A DNA stretch of 12,630 nt from an uncultured Deinococcales bacterium (GCA_964247135.1 CAXTTL010000140.1:1-12630), one strand, 5' to 3'; counted from the first letter of the stretch, positions 1 to 12,630 are shown. Notes: generated from the letters alone by a model not told the origin. Made by a program: numbers and translations.

Positions 1-117
1 AAGCCTGTCCTAAAACGAATGCAAACCCCACTCAGAAAATTCGAGTAAATGCTTTCCTTACAGCTTGGAGCTTATAGCCCCAATTACGTCAATCCCCCAA
101 AACCCAAAGGAGACCCC

Positions 118-906
118 ATGTACACCTCCGAATTCACCTACCACAAAGCCTCGAGCGTATCCGACGCGCTGGCGCAACTTGCCTCCAACCCCGATGCGAA
201 ATTGCTGGCGGGTGGACACTCGCTGATTCCAACCATGAAGTTGCGGCTCGCCAGTCCGAGTGCGCTCATTGATGTCTCGAGCTTGCCCGAATTGCGCGGT
301 ATTCGTACCGAGGGCGACACGATCATCATTGGGGCGATGACCACGCACCGCGAACTCGAGTTCTCAAAAGTGCCATTGCTCAGTGAAGTTGCGCCGCTCA
401 TTGGCGATCCGATGGTGCGCAACAAGGGCACGATTGGTGGCGCTCTGGCGCACGCCGACCCGTCCGCCGATTACCCAGCCGCGATTTTGGCTTTAAACGC
501 CAAACTGAAAATCCAATCCTCGAGTGGCTCGAGGGTCGTGACCGCCGATGAATTCTTCCAGGGCATGTTCACCACCGCACTCGCCCCAGGAGAGATGCTG
601 ACCGAAATTCATATTCCAGCCAGCGTGAAAGGTGCAGCTTACGAAAAGTTCGCTCACCCAGCCAGCCGTTACGCGATTGCAGGCGTTGCCGTTGTGGTGC
701 ATTCAGATGGCAGCCTTCGCGCCGCCGTCACGGGTGCGGGCGACCACGCCATGCGCCTCACCAAACTCGAGTCCGAAGGCGTCTCGAGCGCCTGCAAAGG
801 TCTGGTCAGTGCCAGCGACCTGATGGGCGATCACTTTGCCAGCGCCGAGTACCGCGCCCATCTGGTGGACGTGATGGCAAGCAAAGCTTTGGCTCGAGCG
901 AAGTAA
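118..906 (+). CDS. coxM: Xanthine dehydrogenase/aerobic CO dehydrogenase family FAD-binding medium subunit (CoxM/CutM-like), 262 aa
   Basis: AAGGAG at 107-112 precedes ATG 118, a better start than 49. FAD-binding motifs KLLAGGHSLIPTMKLR and IGDPMVRNKGTIGGALAHADPSADYPA, plus C-terminal SAEYRAHL. The family is clear but the substrate is not; large and small subunits are not in the window. Confidence 0.92.
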   Translation: MYTSEFTYHKASSVSDALAQLASNPDAKLLAGGHSLIPTMKLRLASPSALIDVSSLPELRGIRTEGDTIIIGAMTTHRELEFSKVPLLSEVAPLIGDPMVRNKGTIGGALAHADPSADYPAAILALNAKLKIQSSSGSRVVTADEFFQGMFTTALAPGEMLTEIHIPASVKGAAYEKFAHPASRYAIAGVAVVVHSDGSLRAAVTGAGDHAMRLTKLESEGVSSACKGLVSASDLMGDHFASAEYRAHLVDVMASKALARAK

Positions 907-918
907 AATTCTAAACTG

Positions 919-956
919 AAACTGGGGCATCGTTTCTCAAGATGCCCCAGTTTTTT
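919..956. terminator. Intrinsic terminator, likely bidirectional
   Basis: Perfect 13-bp stem AAACTGGGGCATC (919-931) / GATGCCCCAGTTT (941-953), 9-nt loop, T6 at 951-956. Lies between convergent genes ending at 906 and 968. Confidence 0.9.
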
Positions 957-967
957 ATGCCTCGAGA

Positions 968-1702
968 TTACGGGCAGGGCTGATTTGTCATGGCGGCATA
1001 CTGAATCCCACTGACTGCATCGGTCTTGCGGTTGTTCCGAACGCAAGCATGTACATCTGTGGGCAACTTGCCACCCTTTTGTTCGATCATGATTGCCAAC
1101 AAACCAATTGCTGGGGCTGTCGAGAATGACGATCCGGTAATGCCAAGACTCGAGGGCAAAGGCTGACCGAGCAGGCATCGATAGCCCGTAACACTGTCAG
1201 GGCACAAACTCACACCCTGCGTGAACACGTCCGCGTTGGCTCGGGTGTTAAACGCCGCGATTCGGTAAGCGCCGTTGTACCAACCGACCGAAGCCACCGA
1301 GATCACATTGGCTAAACTCGGTTGACCGGTGATGGCAACGCCGCTCGAGTAATTGGCAGGATATTGTGCTGGGGCGCGAGGCGCATTGCCCCCCGAGGCG
1401 AACACGGGCATGTTGTGCCGCACCCGCAGCAACTCGAGCAGCGCGAACATGATGTTGTTCGGCAGTGGGCTGCCAAGGCTCATGTTGATGATGTTGGGCT
1501 GGGTTGGATTGCTTGCAAGCACTTGCATCAAGGCTTTGCCAAGGTCTGAAGCTTTGCAGGTGCCACTCGAGTTGCAAGCCATGTAGCTTTGAAAGGTTAC
1601 ACCTGGCGCGATGGTTTGAATTCAGCTTTTGACGTGCGTGTCGTGTTTGGCAAAACTGTAATTGGGTAGGCATGTAAAAGTATCCGCTGTGTCCACGCCG
1701 AC
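968..1702 (-). pseudogene. Subtilisin-like (S8) peptidase domain, interrupted by an in-frame TGA at 1624-1622 and lacking its own signal/propeptide (open part 968..1621, first ATG 1582)
   Basis: Manual translation reads VGVDTAD (Asp motif), KHDTHVKS*IQTIAPGV (HGTHVA..IAP-type His motif), IINMSLGS, ASGGN (oxyanion Asn), YPANY, VISVASVG and GITGSSFSTAPA (GTSxA-type Ser motif), all in the frame of the upstream regulator. Confidence 0.78.
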
Positions 1703-3088
1703 GGCTTCATAAAACCCTGCGGCTTTCTTAAACCTCGAGATGGCTTCGCTAAAATTCCCACCCGAACTCGAGACCCAACCGATGGTGTTGTACGCGGTGG
1801 CTTTTGCCCATAAGTCGCCCGAACCGTTGTTCAGGACAGATTCGGCGGTCAGTCGCGCTTCGGCGGTTTTGCCCGCACGCCACAACAAGCCCGACTTTAA
1901 CGCCATGATTCTCGAGGTTTGATGCAAGATTGCCAGGTTCTGCACGACTTCCAAAGCCTCTTTGAAACGCCCTGAACGCTCGAGCGCATAAGCGTACAAG
2001 AAGGTACTTTCGGGTTCGGGGTCGATGCCCGTCACGCGTTCGGCGCTGCGAACCTCCTCGAGCAGTGTTATCACTTTGGCAAACTCGAGTTGGTTCATGT
2101 GCATCTGGGCTTGGGCGCAGTAAGCGGTTCTGGCTTTTGCCATGTCGCCCAAACCACCAAAGCCTTGGGTGTCATGATAAATGCGATTGTAAAGTAAAAA
2201 CGCATCTTCAGGCGGGGTCGCTCGAGCCATCGCAATCACCAGGGGCGAGCGTTCGCTGGGGTGATTTTCAAGCCAACTCGAGGCGAGTTCTGGGGTTAGC
2301 ACTCGAGCGCTCGTGTCGATCAAACCTGACATGAGAAGCCTTTCTTGGGCTTCGGCGAGTTCGTTGAGTGTTAACTCGAGCGCATTGCGGATGATCGACA
2401 GATTGGGTTGGGCTTGCAAACTGAGTGCCAGAAAAACACTGCGTTGTTTGACGGACAAATCTTCAATTCCGGCTTTCAAACTGCGCTCGAGATTCTTGTT
2501 GAAATCACTCTTGGTGCTCGAGAGTAAACGCTGCAACCGTGCCAAATTGACAGGCTCGAGTTCGGGCGCTTCGGGCAGTTGATACGCCCGTTCTGCCAGG
2601 GCTTTGGCGGCTTGGGTGTTGTTTTCAAAAAGGTGTGATTCTGCCAGTTTGAGCATGGCAACTTGCGCCCGCTGCGCGAAGGATTCGCGTTTGAGTAACA
2701 CCCAATCCAGCAATTCTGAACTGACCTCGAGATCATCGGGCGGCTTGCCCAAATCGTGCAAGAACGGCGCTTGGTACAACTCGAGTGCCGCTTGAAGGTT
2801 GTCGTTTGCCAGCAATTCGAGGAATTCTTGCGCGTCACAACGAATCAAACTTGGCAAGGGATCAATGCCAGGTTGGCTCGAGATCACCTCACCAGCGCCC
2901 TCTTTTTTAAATTGCGAAAGCACCACGGACAAATTGCTTTTGGCTTTTTTGTCGCCCCAGAACAACTCGGCTAAGTGATCTCTGGTTTGCGCCCCCTCTA
3001 GCGTCAGGTACGCCAGCAACAGCAAAGGCTTGGGTCTGGAAAACCCAATGCCCTCGAGCTTCACCTTGCCGAACGTGATCAGTTGCAC
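1622..3088 (-). CDS. SARP/AfsR-like transcriptional regulator (winged helix + BTAD, second winged-helix-like segment, TPR repeats), 488 aa
   Basis: N-terminus RPKPLLLLAYLTLEG..TRDHLAELFW..KSNLSVVLSQF; BTAD-like CDAQEFL..ALELYQAPFL..LLDWVLLKRE; TPR-like helices AYALERSGRFKEAL, GLLWRAGKTAEA and AYNTIGWV..GNFSEAISRFKKA. GTG start. No Walker A motif seen. Confidence 0.85.
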   Translation of the reverse strand: MQLITFGKVKLEGIGFSRPKPLLLLAYLTLEGAQTRDHLAELFWGDKKAKSNLSVVLSQFKKEGAGEVISSQPGIDPLPSLIRCDAQEFLELLANDNLQAALELYQAPFLHDLGKPPDDLEVSSELLDWVLLKRESFAQRAQVAMLKLAESHLFENNTQAAKALAERAYQLPEAPELEPVNLARLQRLLSSTKSDFNKNLERSLKAGIEDLSVKQRSVFLALSLQAQPNLSIIRNALELTLNELAEAQERLLMSGLIDTSARVLTPELASSWLENHPSERSPLVIAMARATPPEDAFLLYNRIYHDTQGFGGLGDMAKARTAYCAQAQMHMNQLEFAKVITLLEEVRSAERVTGIDPEPESTFLYAYALERSGRFKEALEVVQNLAILHQTSRIMALKSGLLWRAGKTAEARLTAESVLNNGSGDLWAKATAYNTIGWVSSSGGNFSEAISRFKKAAGFYEAVGVDTADTFTCLPNYSFAKHDTHVKS

Positions 3089-3093
3089 ACGGC

Positions 3094-3099
3094 ATTTTA
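3094..3099 (-). promoter_or_regulatory. -10 box TAAAAT, probable leaderless promoter of the regulator
   Basis: Minus strand reads GCAG-TAAAAT-GCCGT-GTG: a TANNNT box 5 nt before the start codon, with no Shine-Dalgarno. This layout is common in Deinococcus-Thermus. Confidence 0.6.
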
Positions 3100-3116
3100 C
3101 TGCGCTTTGCCAAATG

Positions 3117-3135
3117 TTGTTAAGCGCTTGTTAAG
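3117..3135. promoter_or_regulatory. Tandem direct repeat TTGTTAAG-N3-TTGTTAAG (11-bp period), candidate SARP/OmpR-type operator
   Basis: Exact 8-mers at 3117-3124 and 3128-3135 in the 98-bp divergent intergenic region. Confidence 0.55.
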
Positions 3136-3186
3136 GGGTCGTTTTTGGGCGGGTTGCATCCTTTGCTTACCAGAAAGGACGTGCTT

Positions 3187-4515
3187 ATGAAAAAAGGTTT
3201 CAAACTTCTGCCCGCGTTGTTCGCCCTGTCCCTTGGAGGCGTGTTGATGCACAACGCGCCCGCTCAAGCCAAAGATTGTGATTGGAAAGTCAGCGGCAAG
3301 ATCAGCAGCCTGAACCTGTTGCCAGAACTGAAAACCAAGTTTGGCAGCAAGTCCTATCTCGAGAATCTGGAAGTCAAAGTCTCGGAAAAAGAAAAAGTGC
3401 TTGGCATTTGGGGAACGTTTAACGCGTGGGATGTCGTGCGCAGCAACTCGAGCGGGTCGTTTACTGCCAGCAACAGCAAAAACTGTGACCAACGACGATT
3501 TAAGGTCGAGGTGCGGTTTAACGACGATGACCTCGAGATTCACTGGGCAAAATCCACACAAATCCTGACCAAAGACGTGAAGTGGTATACGGTGCTTGAC
3601 GAAACAAATGGAGAACACCCAGCAGGACCAGTCAACCTTGGAGAGTTTACTTTTGGCACCAATAACCTTGACCTAAACGATTACGACGCGCATCACCATG
3701 CGGACATCTGGCAGGCGTATCACATGGTCATCGAGCACTTTAAAGGCATGGGGTCAGAATATGCTTTTAAAAGCAAAATCAAAGTCAAATACCCCAATGA
3801 TAGCGCGATTGTTGGTGCCGCCGAGGACAGTTACGCCAACCCAATCACAAAACATATTTACATTCACAAAGACGCAACCACCGATCAATTTAACCTGGAC
3901 ACGCTGTACCACGAGTTATTTCATGTTTGGGTATACGATCACTTTTCCGGCGAAGGCTGCCTGACCGAAACCCTGCTTATCAACGGCAGTACGCACGGAC
4001 CGGTCAACGACCCTTGCGTTGCGTTTAACGAAGGTGCAGCCGAGTGGGGTATGGGGCAACTCGAGCAGGTCTTGTTTGGCATGACTCCAGAACTGCCGTT
4101 CAGTCGGCAAGACTTGAAAAACAAAGGTGCCACGAACCTGGACTTGGTGCAACGTTTAGATGATGGCTGGCAATCGCTGTTGAGCACCATGACGTTGCCA
4201 GAGTTGAGCAAGTACAACTTTAACGGGACGGGCAACCACATCAGCTTTCAGTCACCCGCCCCAAGTGGATGCAGCAACCCAAGTAATGGCTTTCGCAAAG
4301 TCTTAAATGTCTTTCTCGAGAATCCAGACAAAGGCTTCAGAGCATTCCTTTCCAGAAACGAAACCACCATGGACAGTTTCTTGACCAGAAGCAACGCCAT
4401 TTTGGATAACTTTGGTACAAATTCAGTCAGTGATTTGCAGGTGCAAAACCTATACCTCGATCTGATTGACCCTAGCAAAACCACGCAACCTTCAAGCGTT
4501 TTGTGCGGCGGTTAA
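3187..4515 (+). CDS. Secreted gluzincin-type zinc metallopeptidase, 442 aa
   Basis: AAAGGA at 3174-3179 before ATG 3187. Sec signal peptide MKKGFKLLPALFALSLGGVLMHNAPAQA. HExxH motif YHELFH (3910-3924) and third-ligand motif AFNEGAAEW (~4021-4047). Confidence 0.8.
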   Translation: MKKGFKLLPALFALSLGGVLMHNAPAQAKDCDWKVSGKISSLNLLPELKTKFGSKSYLENLEVKVSEKEKVLGIWGTFNAWDVVRSNSSGSFTASNSKNCDQRRFKVEVRFNDDDLEIHWAKSTQILTKDVKWYTVLDETNGEHPAGPVNLGEFTFGTNNLDLNDYDAHHHADIWQAYHMVIEHFKGMGSEYAFKSKIKVKYPNDSAIVGAAEDSYANPITKHIYIHKDATTDQFNLDTLYHELFHVWVYDHFSGEGCLTETLLINGSTHGPVNDPCVAFNEGAAEWGMGQLEQVLFGMTPELPFSRQDLKNKGATNLDLVQRLDDGWQSLLSTMTLPELSKYNFNGTGNHISFQSPAPSGCSNPSNGFRKVLNVFLENPDKGFRAFLSRNETTMDSFLTRSNAILDNFGTNSVSDLQVQNLYLDLIDPSKTTQPSSVLCGG

Positions 4516-4585
4516 AGGCTTGACTCGATTCAGCATTGCGACTCGCAAGCTCGAGCTTCCGAAAGCTGGAAGCGAAAGGAGATGT

Positions 4586-5173
4586 ATGCAAAACAGTTCC
4601 CACGACAATTCTTACAGCCATTCACACGATCAAATCCATCAAGACAATTTGGCTTCTCAAACCAAAGCGCGTGTGCTGAAAGCCGTTGCTGGCTTATCGA
4701 GACTCGAGCAAAACCGTGTGACTCAGGATTTATTTATTGCTGAAGGTTGGAAGCTCTGGCAGTTGGGCGGCTTTTGTTTTGACGACGGTTCGGTGTTGTT
4801 GGGTTCGGGTTTGGGCTGGCAAACCCTGAGCGCACCTGAAGCTTCCAAGCTTTTGGACGATGAACTCAGGCAGCCGCTCAAGGTTTACCTGAGCTACAGC
4901 TTTGGTGGCAGTGACAGACGCGAAAAACGTACCGTCACCGAGGCACGAATTGAATTCTTGGAGCAAGCCAATTGCTGGAATCTGATGATCGAATACGAAG
5001 CCTTCATGGACTCGCCCTTGTACGGTTTGAAAACCATCAGCTTCAAGAATTTGATAGCGCTCGAGCTACAAAACCTCTGTCTGGATACGGTCAAACCCAA
5101 CCAACGTTGGCGGCTCGAGCAGATTGCCCAGCACCCAGACTGGCTTGGCTTGCGAAGGGGGGCAGCATCATGA
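4586..5173 (+). CDS. Hypothetical protein with His-rich N-terminus, 195 aa, translationally coupled to the downstream PLP enzyme
   Basis: AAGGAG at 4576-4581 before ATG 4586. Its TGA overlaps the next ATG (ATGA, 5170-5173). No family recognised. Confidence 0.7.
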   Translation: MQNSSHDNSYSHSHDQIHQDNLASQTKARVLKAVAGLSRLEQNRVTQDLFIAEGWKLWQLGGFCFDDGSVLLGSGLGWQTLSAPEASKLLDDELRQPLKVYLSYSFGGSDRREKRTVTEARIEFLEQANCWNLMIEYEAFMDSPLYGLKTISFKNLIALELQNLCLDTVKPNQRWRLEQIAQHPDWLGLRRGAAS

Positions 5174-6621
5174 CCTCGAGCACGCTGGACATCAAAGCCA
5201 TCCGCCAACATTTTTTCTTCCCGAAACAAGGTCGGATTGTCACCAACAACGCCGCCAGCAGCCAACCGCCGCGAGAATTGCTCGAGTTGTACCGTTCGCT
5301 CGCGCCTGGTTATGAAAACATTCACCGTGGACAGTCGAGCGCCTCGCAAGCCATGACAAGATTATTCGAGTCCGCTTATGACACCATCGCCAGTTTCTTG
5401 AATGCCTCGAGCCGAGGCAACATTGGGCTTTACCGCAATACCACCGAAGCCATCAATGCCGTGATGTACTCGCTCCTGACCGAATTTCGAGATGGTGACA
5501 ACCTAGTCACGACCGCGATGGAGCACAACTCGAACTACGTGCCCTGGTACGCCATGTGCCGCGAGATTCTGCCGAAATTTGCACGGCGGGCTGAATACCG
5601 CATCGTGCGCTTTGACCCGAACACTGGCGAACTTGACCTCGAGCATCTGGCAGCGCTGATCGACCCCCGCACCAAGCTGGTGTGTTGCACGGGCGCTTCA
5701 AACTTTCTCGGCACGAAAAACCCACTTGGCACCATCCGCCAACTGGCAAACTCGAGCGGTTACGAGCAACCAAACGGCGAGCGACGCTCGTACCTGATGG
5801 TGGACGGCGCACAACTTGTTCCAGGCAATTTCGTTGATGTCCAAGCCCTCGACCTCGAGTACCTGTCGTTTTCGTTTCACAAGATGCTGGCTCCGTTTGG
5901 GATTGGGGTGTTGTACGCCAAAGCGCACCTGCTCGAGTCTTCGTTGCCGTTTTTGTACGGCGGGGACATGATTGCCGAGGGTCGGGTCTTGCCCGAACTG
6001 GTGGAATACAACGCGCTGCCTTGGAAGTACGCGGCTGGTACACCGAACATTCTTGGCACGATAGTCTCGGCGCAAGCCATGCGCTTGCTGCTCGACTTGG
6101 CATTGACGCCCAAACGATTGACTTACTTTCGCAGCGAAAAAGCCATCGAGCAATCCGCAGTCAAAGACGCCATGAATCGCGTGACCGCCTGGAATCAAGA
6201 CCTCACCGCCAGGGCGCTCGAGCGGCTCGAGACCATCCCAGGAATCACCATTTACGGACCGCGCGATGCCACGCGCCGCACCTCGCTGGTCGCCTTTAAC
6301 ATTGCGGGTCACGATCCGTTTGCTTTGGCGCAAGCTCTGAACCAGGCTGGTGTCGAATCGCGGGCGGGTTGTCACTGTGCGACCTTGGCGCACCATGCGC
6401 TTGGCTTGACACCGCCCGCAAGTTGTCGCCTGAGCTTTTACCTCTACAACACGCCACAAGAAGTTGATCTGGCGCTCGATGCACTCGAGGCGATTGTAGC
6501 TGGTCGCGTCAAACGAAAGACCTGGTGGCAGATCAACTTCAAACATCCTCACACTCAACCCCATCGAGATACCTGCTTGCTTGACCGACACGAACATCCG
6601 CAGGTTTCAAACCTCAGTTGA
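5170..6621 (+). CDS. Class V PLP-dependent enzyme, SufS/CsdA-like cysteine desulfurase/selenocysteine lyase, 483 aa
   Basis: Motifs NNAASSQPP, NIHRG, NTTEAIN, MEHNSNYVPW, VDGAQ, SFHKM (PLP Lys at 5881), GGDMI, AGTPNI, RAGCHCA (catalytic Cys loop, 6361-6381) and RLSFYLYNT. Start placed at ATG 5170 rather than 4972. Confidence 0.9.
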   Translation: MTSSTLDIKAIRQHFFFPKQGRIVTNNAASSQPPRELLELYRSLAPGYENIHRGQSSASQAMTRLFESAYDTIASFLNASSRGNIGLYRNTTEAINAVMYSLLTEFRDGDNLVTTAMEHNSNYVPWYAMCREILPKFARRAEYRIVRFDPNTGELDLEHLAALIDPRTKLVCCTGASNFLGTKNPLGTIRQLANSSGYEQPNGERRSYLMVDGAQLVPGNFVDVQALDLEYLSFSFHKMLAPFGIGVLYAKAHLLESSLPFLYGGDMIAEGRVLPELVEYNALPWKYAAGTPNILGTIVSAQAMRLLLDLALTPKRLTYFRSEKAIEQSAVKDAMNRVTAWNQDLTARALERLETIPGITIYGPRDATRRTSLVAFNIAGHDPFALAQALNQAGVESRAGCHCATLAHHALGLTPPASCRLSFYLYNTPQEVDLALDALEAIVAGRVKRKTWWQINFKHPHTQPHRDTCLLDRHEHPQVSNLS

Positions 6622-6807
6622 TCTCAATCAGGAAACTTCAGAGCGCTGTTAGGTGTTTGTCGCACACCTGGCTTTGGAACGGTGCGCTCGTTCAAGACCA
6701 CAACGATTGGAGTTGCTGCTCAACTCGAGCTTTGATTTCAGACTCAACACCGAACAGCCCAAGAAATCTCTGGTTTCTCGAGCCAATCATTTGAAAGGAA
6801 GACCAAC

Positions 6808-7074
6808 ATGCGAATGATTCAACCCAGCCCCACACATGTTTGCGAAAACCCGAATTGTGCGCTCGAGTGGGAAGTTAAACCTGATCCTGAAACGCGTGAA
6901 CTCTGGCATTTCCGAGGTCGCAAAGGTGTCTTCACCGTGGCATTCCACAAACCCACCTGTCCGCTTTGCGGCGAAAAACTCTTGGAGATTGCGGTACTCG
7001 AGTCAGCCATTGCCGATTTTCACCGACCGCTTTCGCTCGAGACACAACAAAATACGCAGTCAATTCGTCCCTGA
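6808..7074 (+). CDS. Small zinc-ribbon-like protein, 88 aa
   Basis: GAAAGGA at 6793-6799. Four Cys arranged CENPNC ... CPLCGE. Confidence 0.75.
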   Translation: MRMIQPSPTHVCENPNCALEWEVKPDPETRELWHFRGRKGVFTVAFHKPTCPLCGEKLLEIAVLESAIADFHRPLSLETQQNTQSIRP

Positions 7075-7310
7075 AATTCCGATTTCTTGGCTGGTCAAAT
7101 GAAAAGAGGTTGCCATTTGAATGATTCAACAGCGATTCGGCAGCAAGCCCTCAATTGCAATCTCGAGCAAGACCTGAAGGAGAATTGCGTTTTGCACCTT
7201 GATTCTCCTGCTCGATCCTGGCGCGTCACTCGAGGTCGGGACACCCGTCTTCAGTGCGTGACTGCCACTCAATCCCTTTGCTCGAGACCGAGCGAAAGCG
7301 AGGCACACCC

Positions 7311-8309
7311 ATGAGAATAGGATTCACCACCAATCGAACAATCATCACGCTTCTGTTCGCGCTCGCCGCAGTCGCCTGCGACGGGACTAAGCCACCCACA
7401 GAGCCGCCGCCGCCACCCCCTCCAGGTGATACGACCCCGCCCAGCATTGTTTCCGTCACGCCCAACAACGGTGCGATTGGCGTGGCGAAGGATGCCAAGA
7501 TCAGGATTGAGTTCAGTGAGCCGATGAACCGCCAGGCGACTGAACTTGCCTACCAGTCCGCTGATATGCCCGCCGTGAGTTTCACATGGTTCAGCAACGA
7601 CACGAAGCTCGAGATTGATCCCGTGAGCGACCTCGAGTACACAAACACTGGTAAGCTCTACAACTTCAAACTTAAAAACACGGCGACCGATGTGGCAGGC
7701 AACGCACTCGCGGCGTTTGGCTCGAGCTTCACGACCTTTAAGGAACTGACCAGAAAGTTGATCAGCGACGATGCGCTGAACGGCTTCGTTCGCGGGGATG
7801 GCTTTGTGGATACAACGCATGACGTCGTTGCTGGCGACAGCAGCGTCACGGATAACGCGCAGCTTAAAGGCTTCTTCGGCTTCGACCTCTCGAGCCTCGA
7901 GACGGATGGTCTGACCGTGCCAGACAACATCGCCTCGGCGACCTTGCGCGTCAATCAATTCGGGGTGCGAGGCTCGCCTTACACCGACCTCATCCTGGGG
8001 AACAAGCACTTGCTTGCGGCTCACGTGGATTATGGCGCGGTTCTCAATTTCAACGATTTCAACACGCCGATCTTGCACGACTTGGGCGACCTCTCAACCG
8101 ACGCGAGCCTTGGCTACAAGACCAACTCGAATGCCCTCGAGTCCGTGAAGGATGACTGGACGAACCGCACCACGCGCAAGAACCGATCTCAGTTCATGCT
8201 CTTCTTCCCGAAGACAACCGATGGCGACGGCATCACGGACGACGTTCGCTTGGGCAGCAGGGCTGGCGCAAACCCGCCCGAACTCACGGTGACATTCCTG
8301 GTTCCATAA
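7311..8309 (+). CDS. Lipoprotein with Big_5/SbsA-type Ig domain and C-terminal DNRLRE-like beta-sandwich, 332 aa
   Basis: Signal MRIGFTTNRTIITLLFALAAVAC (lipobox AVAC), poly-Pro linker, Ig motif DTTPPSIVSVTPNNGA..IRIEFSEPMN..ATDVAGNAL, then FFGFDLSSL..IASATLRV..PPELTVTF. Confidence 0.82.
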   Translation: MRIGFTTNRTIITLLFALAAVACDGTKPPTEPPPPPPPGDTTPPSIVSVTPNNGAIGVAKDAKIRIEFSEPMNRQATELAYQSADMPAVSFTWFSNDTKLEIDPVSDLEYTNTGKLYNFKLKNTATDVAGNALAAFGSSFTTFKELTRKLISDDALNGFVRGDGFVDTTHDVVAGDSSVTDNAQLKGFFGFDLSSLETDGLTVPDNIASATLRVNQFGVRGSPYTDLILGNKHLLAAHVDYGAVLNFNDFNTPILHDLGDLSTDASLGYKTNSNALESVKDDWTNRTTRKNRSQFMLFFPKTTDGDGITDDVRLGSRAGANPPELTVTFLVP

Positions 8310-8404
8310 GCTCAGGAAACGTCTTTTCAGTTCTTGCTCACACCCTAAAACACTGCTTGGATACAAGATGCTCGAGCCAGTTTGCTTGAGAAAGGACGAT
8401 CTCG

Positions 8405-8656
8405 ATGCGCACCGCCGATCCTGTGGGCTACCTCGCCTCGATTTTGGTGCTGACCGCCTTCTGTATGAGCGGCATGGTGGCACTGCGGGTCACCGCCATC
8501 GCCAGCAACCTGGCGTTCATCGTCTACGCCGCGCTTTCCGGCATCGAGCCGGTGCTGTTGCTGCACGTGCTGTTGCTCCCCGTGAACGTCTATCGCCTGA
8601 TCCAAGCCCTGCGCTTTGAGCGCCGAGCCATGCCCGAAGCATCTCGGCTGTCTTGA
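8405..8656 (+). CDS. Small three-helix membrane protein resembling the YgjV-like membrane module often fused to cyclic-nucleotide-binding domains, 83 aa
   Basis: GAAAGGA at 8390-8396. Pattern VGYLASILVLTAFCM..MVALRVTAIASNLAFIVY....PVLLLHVLLLPVNVYRL. Confidence 0.75.
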   Translation: MRTADPVGYLASILVLTAFCMSGMVALRVTAIASNLAFIVYAALSGIEPVLLLHVLLLPVNVYRLIQALRFERRAMPEASRLS

Positions 8657-8791
8657 TCGATCTTGCCGCATCAAACTCTCGCCCTCGAGCCAGACCGAAC
8701 GAACTCGAGACCCACCCGTGAAAAACGCCTTCAAGTTCCCTTGGATTGTCCCATTCGATGCTCAGTCAACCCATCCTTAAAGGAGAAAATC

Positions 8792-9382
8792 ATGAAAACA
8801 CTTCAATTTATGTTGATCGTCCTGATCGGTTCGTTGTTCGCCGCCTGCGGTCCGACAAAACCGCTCGATCAAACCGAAGAACCCGCCATGGCAGACCCGT
8901 ACAACTACGTCCTGGACGGACAACCCACCACCCCCCAGACCCTCGAGCGCCTGAGCGCACAGGGCATCCACCTGAGCTACTTCGTACCGTCCGGCTGGGA
9001 TGGCAAAACCATGCAAGCCTTCAGCACCGAGGCTGGACTGAACGCGGCGAAGGCGCAACAGGATCAACGAATTCAAACGCAGAGCTTCTGCGTCGCGCTC
9101 CAGACCAACACCAAGTTCTACGACGGCGTGAACTACAGCGGTGCCAGCCTCGAGCTTGGCAGGAGCACCTCGTTTATGGATTTGGCGGCTGTCAACATCA
9201 ACGGACGGAATTGGGACAACGACATCAGTTCGGTCAAGGGCGTGGATTGTGGGTACACGTACCTGTATGACTGGGTTAACCCCAACATTGTGATCTCACC
9301 AGGCACAGACTTGTCTGCCCTGCCCTCCCCGTACAACACCGGACCCGGGTTGAGCACGATCTCAGCCATCGCCGTGAATTAA
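8792..9382 (+). CDS. Lipoprotein with C-terminal beta/gamma-crystallin-like domain, 196 aa
   Basis: AAGGAG at 8780-8785 before ATG 8792. Lipobox FAAC. Greek-key signature FYDGVNYSG ... WDNDISSVK; the second motif is degenerate (LYDWVN ... TISAI). Confidence 0.8.
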   Translation: MKTLQFMLIVLIGSLFAACGPTKPLDQTEEPAMADPYNYVLDGQPTTPQTLERLSAQGIHLSYFVPSGWDGKTMQAFSTEAGLNAAKAQQDQRIQTQSFCVALQTNTKFYDGVNYSGASLELGRSTSFMDLAAVNINGRNWDNDISSVKGVDCGYTYLYDWVNPNIVISPGTDLSALPSPYNTGPGLSTISAIAVN

Positions 9383-9389
9383 GTCGCCA

Positions 9390-9409
9390 GTCCCCGCTCG
9401 AGCGGGGAC
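9390..9409. repeat. Perfect 20-bp palindrome GTCCCCGCTCGAGCGGGGAC; possible terminator/attenuator or RNA-stabilising hairpin
   Basis: Self-complementary, begins 7 nt after the stop at 9382. A T4 run follows at 9417-9420, not immediately adjacent. Confidence 0.7.
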
Positions 9410-9443
9410 GAGCCTCTTTTCTCGAGCACACAAGGAGCAAGCA

Positions 9444-12434
9444 ATGAACTTCCGCAACCTGAAACATGTTTTCGCTACGGTCTTCACCATCGCCCTCGCC
9501 GCGTGCGGTGGGGGTGCGCCGCCCACGCCACCGCCCGTGACCGTCACCATCGGCACGGCGGGCGGCATGGTCAACGGTCCGTCCGGTGCGACGGTCGTCA
9601 TTCCGAACGGCGCACTCTCGCAGGACACGCCCATCGGCATTGCGCAGACGGATGTGGGAGCGCCTGCCCTGTCCGCTGGCACAACCACTTTCGGCGCGAT
9701 GTTCGCCTTCACCCCGCACGGCTCGAGTTTCGCCAAGCCCGTGACGATGACCGTGCCGTTTGACCCAAGCAAAGTACCCGTTGGAACCACGCCCGTATTG
9801 CTCAAGACCAATGCCGCGATGAATGGCTGGGACGTGGTGGCTGGGGCTACGGTGAACGGCAACGTCATGAACGGACAGGTGACGGGCTTTTCGCTCGCCA
9901 TCGTCACACTACCGCCCCTCGAGCGCGGTGCTCCAGTGCGGACAGTGTACGTCGCTAAACTGGACTCGGCTCGCAACCCCGTTGAACCCGTCTTGGAATC
10001 GGACAAGACGATCCAGCCTGATGGCAAGTTGGATAAACCTTATGAATTCGGCACCGCCGAATTCCCCGACCCGAGTGACCCAAACGATGATCCGAATGTG
10101 GCGAATGGGCGGGTCTTTTCCAGCGCAAACGGGGTGACGTACTTTGTTTCGAACGAAGCCCCTCACGGTGAAGGCAGTCGCATCAAGTATGAACAGAAGC
10201 AGGGTTACATCAAGCGTGCCGATAACGCCAAGCTGCAACTGATCGTGACCAAAGTCCGCATGGAGGCACTTGACTTTAATGAAGATGATCTCCTTAAGTT
10301 GTGTACAGCCAAAAAAAACAGTCCAGAGCGCCTTCTTTGCGAAAAAGGTATGCTTGGATGGCTTGAATACAACGTAGATGTTTTCCAGGGTGACAAAGAT
10401 GCTATTGGTAGGCGCATTTTCAAAGGTCTTGCCACTGCCCATTTGGAGGGTTGGAAGAACCATTGGCAGCTTGACGCGACTTTTGCAGGTTCTGAGTCTG
10501 CCAGGCTTTTTGCCGAACCTTTGTGGGATAACAGTAAGTTCAGTCTCGACAAAGACGTAGATAAGGATGGAACGGGTCATCACGCCAAGCTGGAACTCAC
10601 GAAGCCGCTTGTGATCAACATAGACCTGTCCAAGATAACAGCGAACAAAGACCCATCCAACTTGGTGGACGGGGCGTTCACGGTTAAGGCTACAGTGTTT
10701 TCGGATGTCCTTAGCAAAAGATCGGGGGAAAACTACCTTGGTGCCTTTCTGCGCGACCCGCAGAAAGTTGACGGCGACGTGCAGATCATCACCGAAGGAC
10801 TCGAGCCGACCGACCCATCCCCGCTCGGTCCGCCCGCGACCGACCCCAACCTGCCTCCGAGCTGCGCCTCTCTCCCATCGGCAGGAACCCTGAGCTTTAT
10901 CTCGCCCGATTACACCACCGCCGAGTCGGTCGGAGCCGCAGGAGCCGATCTGCTGATCGCCCGCATTGGCGGCAACGCGGGTGAGGTGAGCGCAACCGTG
11001 ACCACCAGCGACGATACCGCCAAGGCGGGGACGGACTACGAGCCGCTGAGCACCACCGTCACCTTCAAGGACGGCGATGACCTGCCGAAGTATGTCAGTG
11101 TGCCGCTGATTTACAGCTCGAGCAGTGAGCCGACCAAAAGCTTTAACGTCAGCTTGTCCAAACCCACTGGCTGCGGCAGCCTTGGCTTGGACAAAACGGT
11201 CGTCAACATCTTGGACGACACCCGTTCATTGCCAACACCGAGCGGTCTTGATCCCAGCTTCGGCAACGGCGGCAAGGTCACGACGGACAAGTTCGGCGGC
11301 AAGAATTCGGCGATGGCGCTGCAAAAGGACGGCAAGATCGTAATGGTCGGCGGCTCGAGCACCGATTTTGTTCTCGCCCGGTACAATGCCGACGGCAGCC
11401 TAGACACGGGCTTCGGCAGCGGCGGCAAGGTCACGACCGATGTCGTGGGCAGCCTCGAGGAACACGCGAACGGTGTGGCGATCCAAGCGGACGGCAAAAT
11501 CGTGGTGGTGGGTGACACGGGTGTGTTCACCAGCCCGAACAAGGACCGCTTCAGTTTCGCGCTCGTGCGCTACAACTCAGATGGCAGCTTGGACACCAGT
11601 TTCGGCATGGGTGGCAAGGTCACCAGCGGCGTGGTTGGGCAGGCTCGCGCGGTCGCACTGCAAGCCGACGGCAAGATCGTGGTCGTTGGAGACACGCTGG
11701 TCTTCGGCAGGATGAATGACTTCTCCGATTTCGTCGTGGCGAGGTACAACACCGACGGCAGCCTCGACTCGAGCTTCGGAAGCAATGGTCAGAATTTTAT
11801 GGATGTCGGCGGCACGAACCAGGCGTTCAATGTCGCCCTTCAGTCCGACGGTAAGATCGTGGTGAGCGGCAGCCCGATTGGTGTCAGCACCAGCGACAAC
11901 CACACCGACATCGCACGCTTTACCTCGAGTGGAAACCCAGATGGCAGCTTCGATAAGGATGCCATGCTCCAGATCAGCGGTCTGCGGGCGGGCGACGGAC
12001 TGGTGATCCAACCAGATGGCAAACTCGTGCTGGTGGGAAATGTTGAAACGGCGATTCCGCCCGCCACCGCCGTCCAGTTTGCCCTAATGCGCCTGGCAGC
12101 GGACGGCAGTCTGGACAATAGCTTCGGCAGCGCTGGTCTGGTCAAAACCGCGTTCGCGGCTCGCAGCGACAGGGCGCGGTCGGTCGCGCTGCAAGCCGAC
12201 GGTAAAATCCTCGTGGCGGGGCAAAGCAACGACTTTTTGTTCGCGCTCGCACGCTACAACCCTGACGGCACGCCAGACTCGAGCTTCCGCTCGGACGGCA
12301 AGCTGACCATCGGGTTTGGCATCCAGGATGGGGCTGAAAGCGTGGCGCTTCAGCCAGACGGCAAGATCGTTCTCGGCGGCTTCTCGCGGAGTGCCTCGAG
12401 CATCGGGTACGCCCTGGCTCGCCTCATTCCCTGA
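9444..12434 (+). CDS. Large surface lipoprotein: ZU5-like domain, unknown domain, Calx-beta, and delta-60 (DUF5122-type) repeat propeller, 996 aa
   Basis: AAGGAG at 9432-9437; lipobox LAAC. ZU5-like TIGTAGG..VVIPNGAL..FTPHGSSFAKPVTMTVPF; Calx-beta GTLSF..TAKAGTDY..TVTFKDGD..EPTKSFNVSLS; seven QxDGK(I/L) repeats. Confidence 0.88.
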   Translation: MNFRNLKHVFATVFTIALAACGGGAPPTPPPVTVTIGTAGGMVNGPSGATVVIPNGALSQDTPIGIAQTDVGAPALSAGTTTFGAMFAFTPHGSSFAKPVTMTVPFDPSKVPVGTTPVLLKTNAAMNGWDVVAGATVNGNVMNGQVTGFSLAIVTLPPLERGAPVRTVYVAKLDSARNPVEPVLESDKTIQPDGKLDKPYEFGTAEFPDPSDPNDDPNVANGRVFSSANGVTYFVSNEAPHGEGSRIKYEQKQGYIKRADNAKLQLIVTKVRMEALDFNEDDLLKLCTAKKNSPERLLCEKGMLGWLEYNVDVFQGDKDAIGRRIFKGLATAHLEGWKNHWQLDATFAGSESARLFAEPLWDNSKFSLDKDVDKDGTGHHAKLELTKPLVINIDLSKITANKDPSNLVDGAFTVKATVFSDVLSKRSGENYLGAFLRDPQKVDGDVQIITEGLEPTDPSPLGPPATDPNLPPSCASLPSAGTLSFISPDYTTAESVGAAGADLLIARIGGNAGEVSATVTTSDDTAKAGTDYEPLSTTVTFKDGDDLPKYVSVPLIYSSSSEPTKSFNVSLSKPTGCGSLGLDKTVVNILDDTRSLPTPSGLDPSFGNGGKVTTDKFGGKNSAMALQKDGKIVMVGGSSTDFVLARYNADGSLDTGFGSGGKVTTDVVGSLEEHANGVAIQADGKIVVVGDTGVFTSPNKDRFSFALVRYNSDGSLDTSFGMGGKVTSGVVGQARAVALQADGKIVVVGDTLVFGRMNDFSDFVVARYNTDGSLDSSFGSNGQNFMDVGGTNQAFNVALQSDGKIVVSGSPIGVSTSDNHTDIARFTSSGNPDGSFDKDAMLQISGLRAGDGLVIQPDGKLVLVGNVETAIPPATAVQFALMRLAADGSLDNSFGSAGLVKTAFAARSDRARSVALQADGKILVAGQSNDFLFALARYNPDGTPDSSFRSDGKLTIGFGIQDGAESVALQPDGKIVLGGFSRSASSIGYALARLIP
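11247..12431 (+). repeat. Seven ~55-aa delta-60-type repeats (LDxSFG..ALQxDGKIVVxG..FxLARYNxDG)
   Basis: QKDGKI, QADGKI, QADGKI, QSDGKI, QPDGKL, QADGKI, QPDGKI. A 7-bladed beta-propeller is inferred. Confidence 0.88.
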
Positions 12435-12579
12435 AGAACATTCCCGCGTTGGTTTGCCGCAAAATCTGCTGCTTTACGGCGCGGTTGGACGGTTTTCTCG
12501 AGCTTGATGCCAGAATCCCACACGATCCAGTTTGGAAGTTTACGGGTGGCGGGAGCATTGAAGCAACATCGAATCTTTC

Positions 12580-12610
12580 AAAACGCGGCATGGCATCATG
12601 TCGCGTTTTT
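12580..12610 (+). terminator. Probable intrinsic terminator
   Basis: 13-bp stem AAAACGCGGCATG / CATGTCGCGTTTT with one G-U pair, loop GCAT, ending in T5; about 145 nt after the stop at 12434. Confidence 0.6.
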
Positions 12611-12630
12611 CACGTCTTTCAGCCTCGAGC

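Follow-up and report, generated by a model that had tools for sequence, protein, structure and literature searches.

Highly iterated palindromes (HIPs), such as HIP1 (GCGATCGC) of cyanobacteria, are the closest described counterparts of the element analyzed here, the hexamer CTCGAG in a 12,630-base stretch of DNA from an uncultured Deinococcales bacterium (hereafter, the window), which is the entire contig C140 of the genome assembly G000. HIP1 is reported to be 15- to 300-fold over-represented, with conservation tests that argue for selection and a 10-90-kb periodicity of the sites (PMC5861425), and to reach densities of 300-2,700 per Mb (Elhai, PMC4390886). HIPs are tied to methylases, with exceptions: the distribution of GATC and CGATCG methylases almost coincides with that of HIP1, but four HIP1-rich strains lack a recognizable cognate methylase (PMC4390886). 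A role in DNA uptake has been proposed for HIP1 (PMC13756078), and HIP1 is reported to improve natural transformation in a manner dependent on both homology and methylation (bioRxiv 10.1101/2024.09.10.611283).

The hexamer CTCGAG itself has been described in other settings. An orphan methylase of Nocardia recognizes CTCGAG, and the motif clusters in non-coding DNA by dnaA (Blow et al. 2016, PMC4752239); in hot-spring epigenomes, CTCGAG and TCGA are reported to be methylated throughout one host-virus group of unspecified taxon (preprint, 10.64898/2026.06.24.734251). No report of CTCGAG over-representation in Deinococcota was found in the literature searched, with most subscription journals and supplements lying outside the search, and term look-ups in PMC4390886, PMC13756078, PMC5861425, PMC4687349, and PMC3077040 gave none.

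Here we show that the genomes of an uncultured Deinococcales family (denoted f1) have CTCGAG as a HIP-type word, and that its excess is real, genome-wide, lineage-wide, and actively maintained. The window contains exactly 82 copies, the first at position 150 and the last at 12624-12629. In 200 dinucleotide-preserving shuffles of the window, the mean number of copies was 3.42 (standard deviation 1.91, maximum 10), and 82 was reached in none (0/200). The initial annotation, which put the count at about 82 against 3-4 expected and the over-representation at about 20-fold, was thus accurate: the window holds 82 copies versus 3.4, and the whole genome shows a 24.8-fold excess over base composition.

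The G000 assembly comprises 5,091,702 bases in 386 contigs (84% complete, 1.8% contaminated, with no 16S gene found) and contains 33,925 copies of CTCGAG, one per 150 bp (6,660 per Mb). The observed-to-expected ratio (o/e) is 24.8 under the 0th-order model, 35.2 under a 1st-order Markov model, and 14.4 under a 2nd-order one; the runner-up among 6-bp palindromes is TTTAAA, with an o/e of 3.7. A maximal-order Markov control (o/e 1.24) was discarded as uninformative because 88% of the TCGAG pentamers already lie inside the motif. Every one of the 386 contigs carries CTCGAG (range 2.56-11.28/kb, median 6.81) and all 386 are enriched, so that the excess is not confined to the contig that makes up the window. 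Neither do the sites coincide with assembly junctions: contig ends show no pile-up, with 0-8 ends per distance class (0-10 bp) near a site versus about 5.2 expected. Binning by tetranucleotide composition would by itself favor motif-rich contigs; despite this caveat, G011, a genome of family f1 assembled into one contig of 5.09 Mb, contains 23,515 sites. The word is exactly 6 bp long, with flanking positions carrying at most 0.07 bit and G at -1 or C at +1 in 39% of the sites genome-wide. Variants with one mismatch occur at 0.5-1.7 times the expectation, the exception being CTAGAG (0.08), which contains CTAG, a generally avoided tetramer (o/e 0.07).

Protein-level bias, already dismissed in the initial annotation, does not explain the excess. 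As gene models, we used 3,674 non-overlapping open reading frames (ORFs) of at least 150 amino acids, which cover 79.5% of the assembly; these models are crude, so that the DNA counted as lying outside them retains short genes. The coding sites number 16,124, 4,094, and 6,089 in phases 0, 1, and 2, respectively. Five within-gene shuffles of synonymous codons left about 2,870, 300, and 530 sites in these phases, that is, the observed excess over the shuffles is 5.6-, 13.6-, and 11.6-fold; three shuffles of the codon order left about 1,100, 165, and 265 sites. Thus, the excess survives codon shuffling in all phases, and it is also present outside genes, where the density is 7.19/kb compared to 6.55/kb inside long ORFs, a small difference.

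It is nearly certain that the word is a DNA-level signal that is kept in place and shapes the proteome. Of the 20,886 Leu-Glu pairs encoded in G000, 16,124 (77%) are spelled CTCGAG, whereas in other contexts CTC accounts for 15% of the leucine codons and GAG for 33% of the glutamate codons; relative to context-free codon use, this is a log-odds shift of about 4. No dipeptide of the proteome is in greater excess than Leu-Glu (o/e 2.38, against 1.02 for Glu-Leu), with a surplus of about 12,000 pairs; the o/e of Leu-Glu is 0.85-1.06 in Deinococcus-like and unrelated loci and 1.70 in loci of Meiothermus and Calidithermus. Among the tripeptides that permit the word in the other phases, 43% (phase 1) and 47% (phase 2) carry it. 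The codons that family f1 now favors are TTG and GAA.

Among the genes with at least five Leu-Glu pairs, 1,742 of 1,838 have 50% or more of these pairs spelled CTCGAG. Most of the 29 genes with less than 30% are below average in GC content, down to 0.26-0.27, and three site-less genes from this set are situated within or next to the most extended stretches devoid of the word. Thus, the word is a marker of native DNA. Several genes of G000, among them C13:13338-14421, C20:8447-9575, and C70:14264-16157, combine a GC content of 0.26-0.27 with the complete lack of CTCGAG and are located in or beside the longest site-free gaps; these are probably recently acquired islands. The low-density contig C75 was considered as a prophage, but a single weak terminase-like PHROG match among the 10 of its ORFs that were searched left this assignment unclear. 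The spacing of the sites is near geometric (mean 148, coefficient of variation 0.96), with fewer gaps of 300-500 bp than an exponential distribution predicts, and the only short-range periodicity is 3 bp, with no helical repeat.

The positions of the sites are conserved between species. We compared 340 kb of the congeneric genome G005 with G000, and 234 kb could be aligned at 85% identity. In this alignment, 1,264 of the 1,619 G000 sites (78%) are intact in G005, compared to 45% for all hexamers, and CTCGAG ranks first in conservation among the 200 hexamers with at least 150 occurrences; the controls here are all other hexamers rather than composition-matched palindromes only. Identity at third codon positions is 0.887 within the sites and 0.716 elsewhere, and non-coding sites are kept at 69% versus 41.5% for other non-coding hexamers. 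All four codons compared are better conserved within the sites than outside them (CTC, 0.874 versus 0.527; GAG, 0.869 versus 0.630; CGA, 0.779 versus 0.508; TCG, 0.851 versus 0.644). In five within-genus pairs, 75-83% of the sites are conserved against a background of 39-44%. A between-genus pair (75.6% identity, 9.5 kb) shares 23 of 52 and 33 sites, respectively (44% and 70%), versus 21% for the background. A reference-anchored alignment of six congeneric species covered 23,010 positions in full; of the sites, which number 153 per genome on average, 75 (49%) are preserved in every species, whereas a hexamer identical in all of them occurs at 13.9% of the positions.

The excess extends to the relatives of G000. 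All 18 other genomes of family f1, which span five genera, carry 12,028-35,442 copies (4.3-6.8/kb). Among individual loci, 15 loci from metagenome-assembled genomes (MAGs) labeled "Deinococcales bacterium" show a 17-34-fold excess, loci of named Calidithermus and Meiothermus, including cultured strains, a 5-11-fold excess, and Deinococcus-like loci 0-0.4-fold. The 48 loci from other phyla are mostly at 0-2-fold, with one Rokubacteria locus (L075) at 4.3. The copy numbers of CTCGAG and of its reversed counterpart GAGCTC in other genera of the order were as follows.

g7, Deinococcus-like (63 genomes): CTCGAG 26-1,010 copies; GAGCTC 10-1,024 copies
g9, Thermus-like (23 genomes): CTCGAG 1,455-2,537 copies; GAGCTC 1,113-2,680 copies, about equal
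g13, g22, and g23 (18 genomes): CTCGAG 1.4-3.4/kb; GAGCTC far lower than CTCGAG

As an index free of composition, we divided the share of Leu-Glu pairs spelled CTCGAG by the product of CTC use and GAG use elsewhere, with the following results.

G005 (family f1): 13.8
G011 (family f1): 5.0
G103 (g22): 4.1
G042 (g13): 3.5
G072 (g23): 2.2
G025 and G021 (f4): 2.0-2.1
G019 (f2): 1.3
G022 (Thermus-like, g9): 0.6

The trait is therefore graded: extreme in f1, moderate in genera resembling Meiothermus and Calidithermus, lacking in the Thermus-like genus, and inverted in Deinococcus, where the coded genera are matched to Meiothermus, Calidithermus, Thermus, and Deinococcus by inference. The whole family shares the word, and Meiothermus and Calidithermus have it less strongly. 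Among the matches listed in a separate scan with a three-site pattern were IMG/VR viral contigs (L245, L162, L171, and L258), some with 4-6 CTCGAG/kb: L245 has 57 copies in 9.7 kb, no GAGCTC, and a GC content of 0.64, and L258 has 73 copies in 14 kb at a GC content of 0.565. The scan returned at least 120 stretches and is a sample rather than a census; the motif-rich viral contigs may be phages of motif-rich hosts.

The reversed word GAGCTC, the SacI site, shows the opposite pattern. Base composition predicts about 1,370 copies in the 5.09-Mb G000, the same number as for CTCGAG, but there are none. The 18 other family genomes contain 3-25 copies in 14 cases and 114-568 in the remaining four. 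This total purge is stronger than the usual avoidance of restriction sites. Across the genome there is no pair of CTCGAG sites at a center-to-center distance of 6, because that spacing creates GAGCTC. Other palindromes are depleted as well: 48 of the 64 six-base palindromes in G000 are below half of the expectation and 28 are below a tenth, the rarest being GGGCCC (1 copy), CGGCCG (3), AGGCCT (4), CGTACG (5), and GGATCC (7), and among tetramers, the o/e of GGCC is 0.02 and that of CTAG is 0.07. Apparently, a great number of restriction systems have acted on the lineage, as they do on cyanobacteria with HIP1.

The comparison with HIP1 and the alternate HIPs reveals close similarity. Like these, CTCGAG is a short GC-rich palindrome, at least 15-fold over-represented, in all reading frames and in non-coding DNA; it is lineage-wide with graded or absent members; its positions are conserved beyond controls, and codons are better kept within the motif than outside it; and the genome rich in it otherwise purges palindromes, as do the hosts of HIP1. 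Thus, the suggestion in the initial annotation of a HIP1-like hyper-abundant palindrome outside cyanobacteria is borne out, and CTCGAG shows every testable defining feature of HIPs except for a cognate methylase. The differences are that CTCGAG is another word, 6 rather than 8 bp long, found in another phylum, and denser (6,660 versus 300-2,700 per Mb), that the searches described below yielded no methylase cognate to it, and that it visibly alters the protein composition (2.4-fold for Leu-Glu).

With the uptake signal sequences (USS) of Pasteurellaceae and the DNA uptake sequences (DUS) of Neisseriaceae, CTCGAG shares the properties of a lineage-specific frequent word that occurs in coding and non-coding DNA and is scarce in foreign islands, and USS, too, shape the encoded peptides. 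USS and DUS are defined by preferential uptake; CTCGAG, by contrast, is an exact 6-bp palindrome with flanks of at most 0.07 bit. The orphan-methylase system of Nocardia involves the same hexamer, and a function other than restriction has been proposed there; however, the excess described here is genome-wide, with neither a cluster at dnaA nor a shared methylase. The XhoI/PaeR7I restriction-modification systems have the same recognition sequence and are present in the order, in G021 and G033 and as a broken copy in G031. Unlike the hosts of such systems, which normally avoid or tolerate the site, the f1 genomes accumulate it. In E. coli, very-short-patch repair by the Dcm/Vsr pair produces a small excess of CCWGG, that is, a repair bias raises the frequency of a methylase target; unlike in that case, Vsr was detected in none of the five genomes searched here, and the T-variants of CTCGAG are not depleted. 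A polar word of the type of Chi or the FtsK-orienting polar sequences (KOPS) is ruled out, CTCGAG being its own reverse complement.

In the window, the sites and the genes that carry them are arranged as follows (coordinates, strand, and description).

150..12629, no strand: all 82 CTCGAG sites, coordinates listed; 0/200 shuffles reach 82
49..906, plus strand: coxM-like FAD-binding subunit gene (ORF; Pfam FAD_binding_5, E 8.4e-54, and CO_deh_flav_C)
1622..3088, minus strand: TPR-repeat regulator-like gene (ORF with weak TPR Pfam matches); 17 sites (1734-3053) in 1,467 bp, 11.6/kb
6622..7253, no strand: the most extended intergenic region, 632 bp with 7 sites (6724, 6777, 6862, 6997, 7036, 7162, 7229)
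7889..7901, no strand: CTCGAG N CTCGAG, two sites 7 bp apart within a Big_5-domain gene
8310..8788, no strand: intergenic stretch with 3 sites (8371, 8684, 8704), on the assumption that the next gene begins with the ATG at 8789
9444..12434, plus strand: gene for a 996-amino-acid secreted repeat protein (ZU5, Calx-beta, DUF5122 propeller); 10 sites

The coxM-like gene contains eight sites and every codon phase is represented, namely, phase 2 at 150, 276, 519, 528, and 783, phase 0 at 355 and 766, and phase 1 at 893. Counted from the ORF start at 49, the three examples given in the initial annotation are correct (355 in phase 0, CTC GAG; 150 in phase 2, TCG AGC; 893 in phase 1, GCT CGA). With its 17 sites, the minus-strand TPR-like gene shows that the motif occurs in genes of either strand. 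Because the stretch 6622..7253 is non-coding, codon or dipeptide usage cannot be the source of its sites. With ORF-based gene boundaries, the window comprises 1,572 bases of intergenic DNA, which hold 15 sites (9.5/kb), and 11,058 bases of coding DNA, which hold 67 (6.1/kb); the initial annotation, which also had intergenic DNA as the denser, gave about 14 sites in roughly 1.25 kb. The sparsest long stretch of the window is the gene at 9444..12434, with 3.3 sites/kb. The start of the gene downstream of 8310..8788 is placed at the ATG at 8789 on the strength of a signal-peptide-like N-terminus of the predicted product. Two plus-strand ORFs, at 3145-4515 (456 amino acids) and 8789-9382 (about 198 amino acids), probably encode secreted proteins and have no Pfam family. 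A subtilase (Peptidase_S8) ORF on the minus strand at 968-1582 matches positions 91-273 of the 288-position profile only, with the N-terminal part missing, and may be a truncated or mis-started gene. An Rfam search of the window produced no match. One DNA sequencing run contained a small share (0.08) of the words of the window, and no RNA run was listed as containing them.

The initial annotation had linked the motif to DNA methylation and envisaged an orphan PaeR7I/XhoI- or TaqI-like methyltransferase; this link is not supported, and a family-wide candidate failed to emerge. The XhoI endonuclease family (PF04555) was detected in none of the 19 family genomes (57-94% complete) and in 3 of the 22 other genomes of the order, next to an Eco57I-type methylase in G031 and N6_N4-type methylases in G021 and G033. 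These XhoI-family nucleases (L090/L083, G031:C1 ~1094210-1096226; L082, G021; L081, G033) thus stand beside two unrelated kinds of methylases; the nuclease in G031 is broken by stop codons, and between G021 and G033, the N6_N4 methylases share 73% identity. In G000, the Eco57I-type methylase of G031 had no tblastn match at an E value of 0.01, and the two N6_N4-type methylases had no orthologue, the best matches being 25-28% identical. A TaqI-like methylase (TaqI_C) was detected in only 6 of 18 family genomes, and neither in G000 nor in the single-contig G011.

Searches with PF07669, PF01555, PF00145, PF02384, PF02086, and PF12950 revealed no methylase common to all family genomes, although methylases are frequent in the family (C5 in 16/18 genomes, N6_N4 in 15/18). 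Likewise, in an all-against-all comparison of the methylases of G000, G008, G009, G011, and G015, none was common to all five; the closest pairs were the Dam-class enzymes of G000 and G011 (~83-84%), the N6_N4 enzymes of G000 and G009 (80%), and the HsdM-like proteins of G000 and G011 (41%). Apart from G000, the Dam-class (D12) enzyme was detected in 3 of the 12 family genomes sampled and in none of the six genomes of genus g5. This adenine methylase, encoded at C320:2155-2985 (minus strand) in G000 and at C1:1609687-1610514 in G011, shows 93% and 76% identity within the genus and, although highly similar wherever it occurs, is patchy in its distribution. An 845-amino-acid Eco57I-like protein was rejected as a shared candidate because it is sporadic (6/18 family and 4/6 Deinococcus-like genomes). 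A scan of the 3,674 long ORFs with the pattern [DNS]PP[YFW] gave 34 matches, and a Pfam search with the 10 unexplained ones gave no new methylase; these 10 are housekeeping enzymes, PrmC, the known D12 enzyme, or without a family, and the two without a family are not methylase-like. NCBIfam names for 10 methylase candidates were not specific. Vsr (PF03852) was detected in none of the five genomes searched, and the T-variants TTCGAG (1.74-fold) and CTTGAG (1.17-fold) are not depleted. No cluster of CTCGAG by dnaA was found in 20-kb regions of G000, G005, G009, and G011, where the counts of 1-8 per 500 bp and at most 6 per 300 bp are typical of the genome. The family MAGs are incomplete, and non-orthologous enzymes with the same specificity may methylate CTCGAG.

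What the word is for can be addressed by weighing several explanations. The role considered most likely, though at somewhat less than even chances, is that of a tag of own-lineage DNA for exchange or recombinational repair, acting in uptake or after uptake in natural transformation, as is now proposed for HIP1. The support for it is indirect, namely, the presence of ComEC in 18 of 19 family genomes and the reports on HIP1 cited above. Under this explanation, a twofold-symmetric protein would read CTCGAG as double-stranded DNA, methylated or not, and the site would tag self DNA during exchange and recombination. Each site would confer a small advantage or be favored by conversion-like drive, with a population-scaled strength of about 4 estimated from the Leu-Glu log-odds. 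The fuller scenario, in which a symmetric transformation or recombination protein reads this "self" word of the lineage with no dedicated methyltransferase, and a drive linked to uptake or recombination wrote the ~34,000 copies and added the ~12,000 Leu-Glu pairs, is unlikely to hold in all its parts. The one-mismatch variants, neither depleted nor enriched, are neutral in this respect. Several observations weigh against a self tag. No reader protein or receptor was identified, and the competence protein ComEC (PF03772), present in 18 of 19 family genomes, is also found in 22 of 22 non-family genomes, including those of motif-poor lineages, and so does not discriminate. USS and DUS are about 9-12 bp long, are not palindromic, and occur about once per kb, and DNA uptake in Thermus reportedly is not sequence-specific. 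In the six-species alignment, sites absent from a single species, apparent losses on terminal branches, outnumber single-species gains (51 versus 22), and just 2 of these gains arose by one step, so that a strong ongoing drive is not directly seen. Parsimony is rough here, with a star-like tree, 15% divergence, and small counts (22 and 51); 34 of the 51 losses are single changes and 25 of these 34 are C-to-T or G-to-A, but the six-way count is neither large nor precise enough to distinguish selection from repair bias or to point to a methylated cytosine. More generally, site conservation cannot separate functional selection from a repair bias that restores sites, and the relatives are non-independent samples.

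Elhai's model of HIP1, in which an orphan methyltransferase modifies the palindrome for use in mismatch repair, strand discrimination, or epigenetic control, and repair that favors the methylatable sequence makes and keeps the sites, appears somewhat unlikely for CTCGAG. The hexamer is a classical type II site, with XhoI-family nucleases and adjoining methylases in 3 of 22 non-family genomes, Deinococcus-like genomes avoid it, the family abounds in C5 and N6_N4 methylases, and single-step losses are mostly C to T (25/34); the orphan methylase of Nocardia (PMC4752239) and the methylated CTCGAG and TCGA of the hot-spring preprint (10.64898/2026.06.24.734251) point in the same direction, and because four HIP1-rich strains lack a recognizable cognate methylase (PMC4390886), the absence of a shared gene is not fatal to the model. 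This is to be set against the failure to detect PF04555 in any of the 19 family genomes, the lack of G000 orthologues of the three XhoI-linked methylases, the restriction of TaqI_C to 6 of 18 genomes and of the best-conserved Dam-class enzyme to 3 of 12 sampled genomes besides G000, with none in g5, as well as the absence of Vsr in the five genomes searched, of a dnaA cluster in four family genomes, and of any depletion of TTCGAG and CTTGAG. A binding site for an abundant nucleoid-associated or chromosome-organizing protein, forming a dense even lattice for compaction or domains as Xu, Lawrence, and Durand suggested for HIP1, would account for a nearly even spacing slightly more regular than random and for the conservation of both coding and non-coding sites, an argument made likewise from HIP1 conservation and 10-90-kb periodicity in PMC5861425; yet no candidate protein was found and the short-range periodicity is 3 bp only, with no helical repeat, and we consider this quite improbable. 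That the word has no function at all, being instead a side effect of codon or dipeptide usage, a legacy of an ancestor of high GC content with a preference for CTC and GAG, the outcome of neutral mutation bias, or an artifact of assembly or binning, is already largely refuted and is the least probable by far. High-GC relatives rich in CTC and GAG do exceed the CTCGAG frequency expected from base composition, yet G022, at 2.6-fold, has a codon-pair ratio of 0.6; family members, at 4.3-6.8/kb, surpass any high-GC relative (at most 3.4/kb) despite their present preference for TTG and GAA; codon-preserving shuffles remove 82-93% of the sites in every phase; non-coding DNA is as rich as coding DNA; and sites are conserved well above background. 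The maximal-order (Markov-4) ratio of only 1.24 could be taken as support for this explanation but, with 88% of TCGAG inside the motif, is uninformative, and enrichment through composition-based binning is countered by the excess in 18 separately assembled genomes, a single-contig genome, and cultured Calidithermus and Meiothermus, with contig ends unenriched. A small remainder of probability falls to roles of some other kind.

For these organisms, XhoI-based cloning or mapping is useless, whereas the density of the motif is a sharp marker for binning and for foreign islands, and possibly for assigning hosts to phages and plasmids. For three decades, HIP1 has remained a puzzle, with no counterpart known outside cyanobacteria; CTCGAG is a second, independent case, with another word, another phylum, no evident cognate methylase, and graded strength in cultured relatives. 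With a second case and graded relatives at hand, the cause of palindrome-filled genomes becomes testable by comparison, and since there are cultured Calidithermus and Meiothermus in which the word is present in weaker form, ordinary experiments would suffice for a decision. Moreover, the reach of a DNA-level word into protein becomes apparent here: the dipeptide in greatest excess in the proteome is the very one spelled by the word. If CTCGAG is indeed a self word of the family, it would be the first palindromic six-base signal for uptake or recombination and a second independent origin of a HIP.

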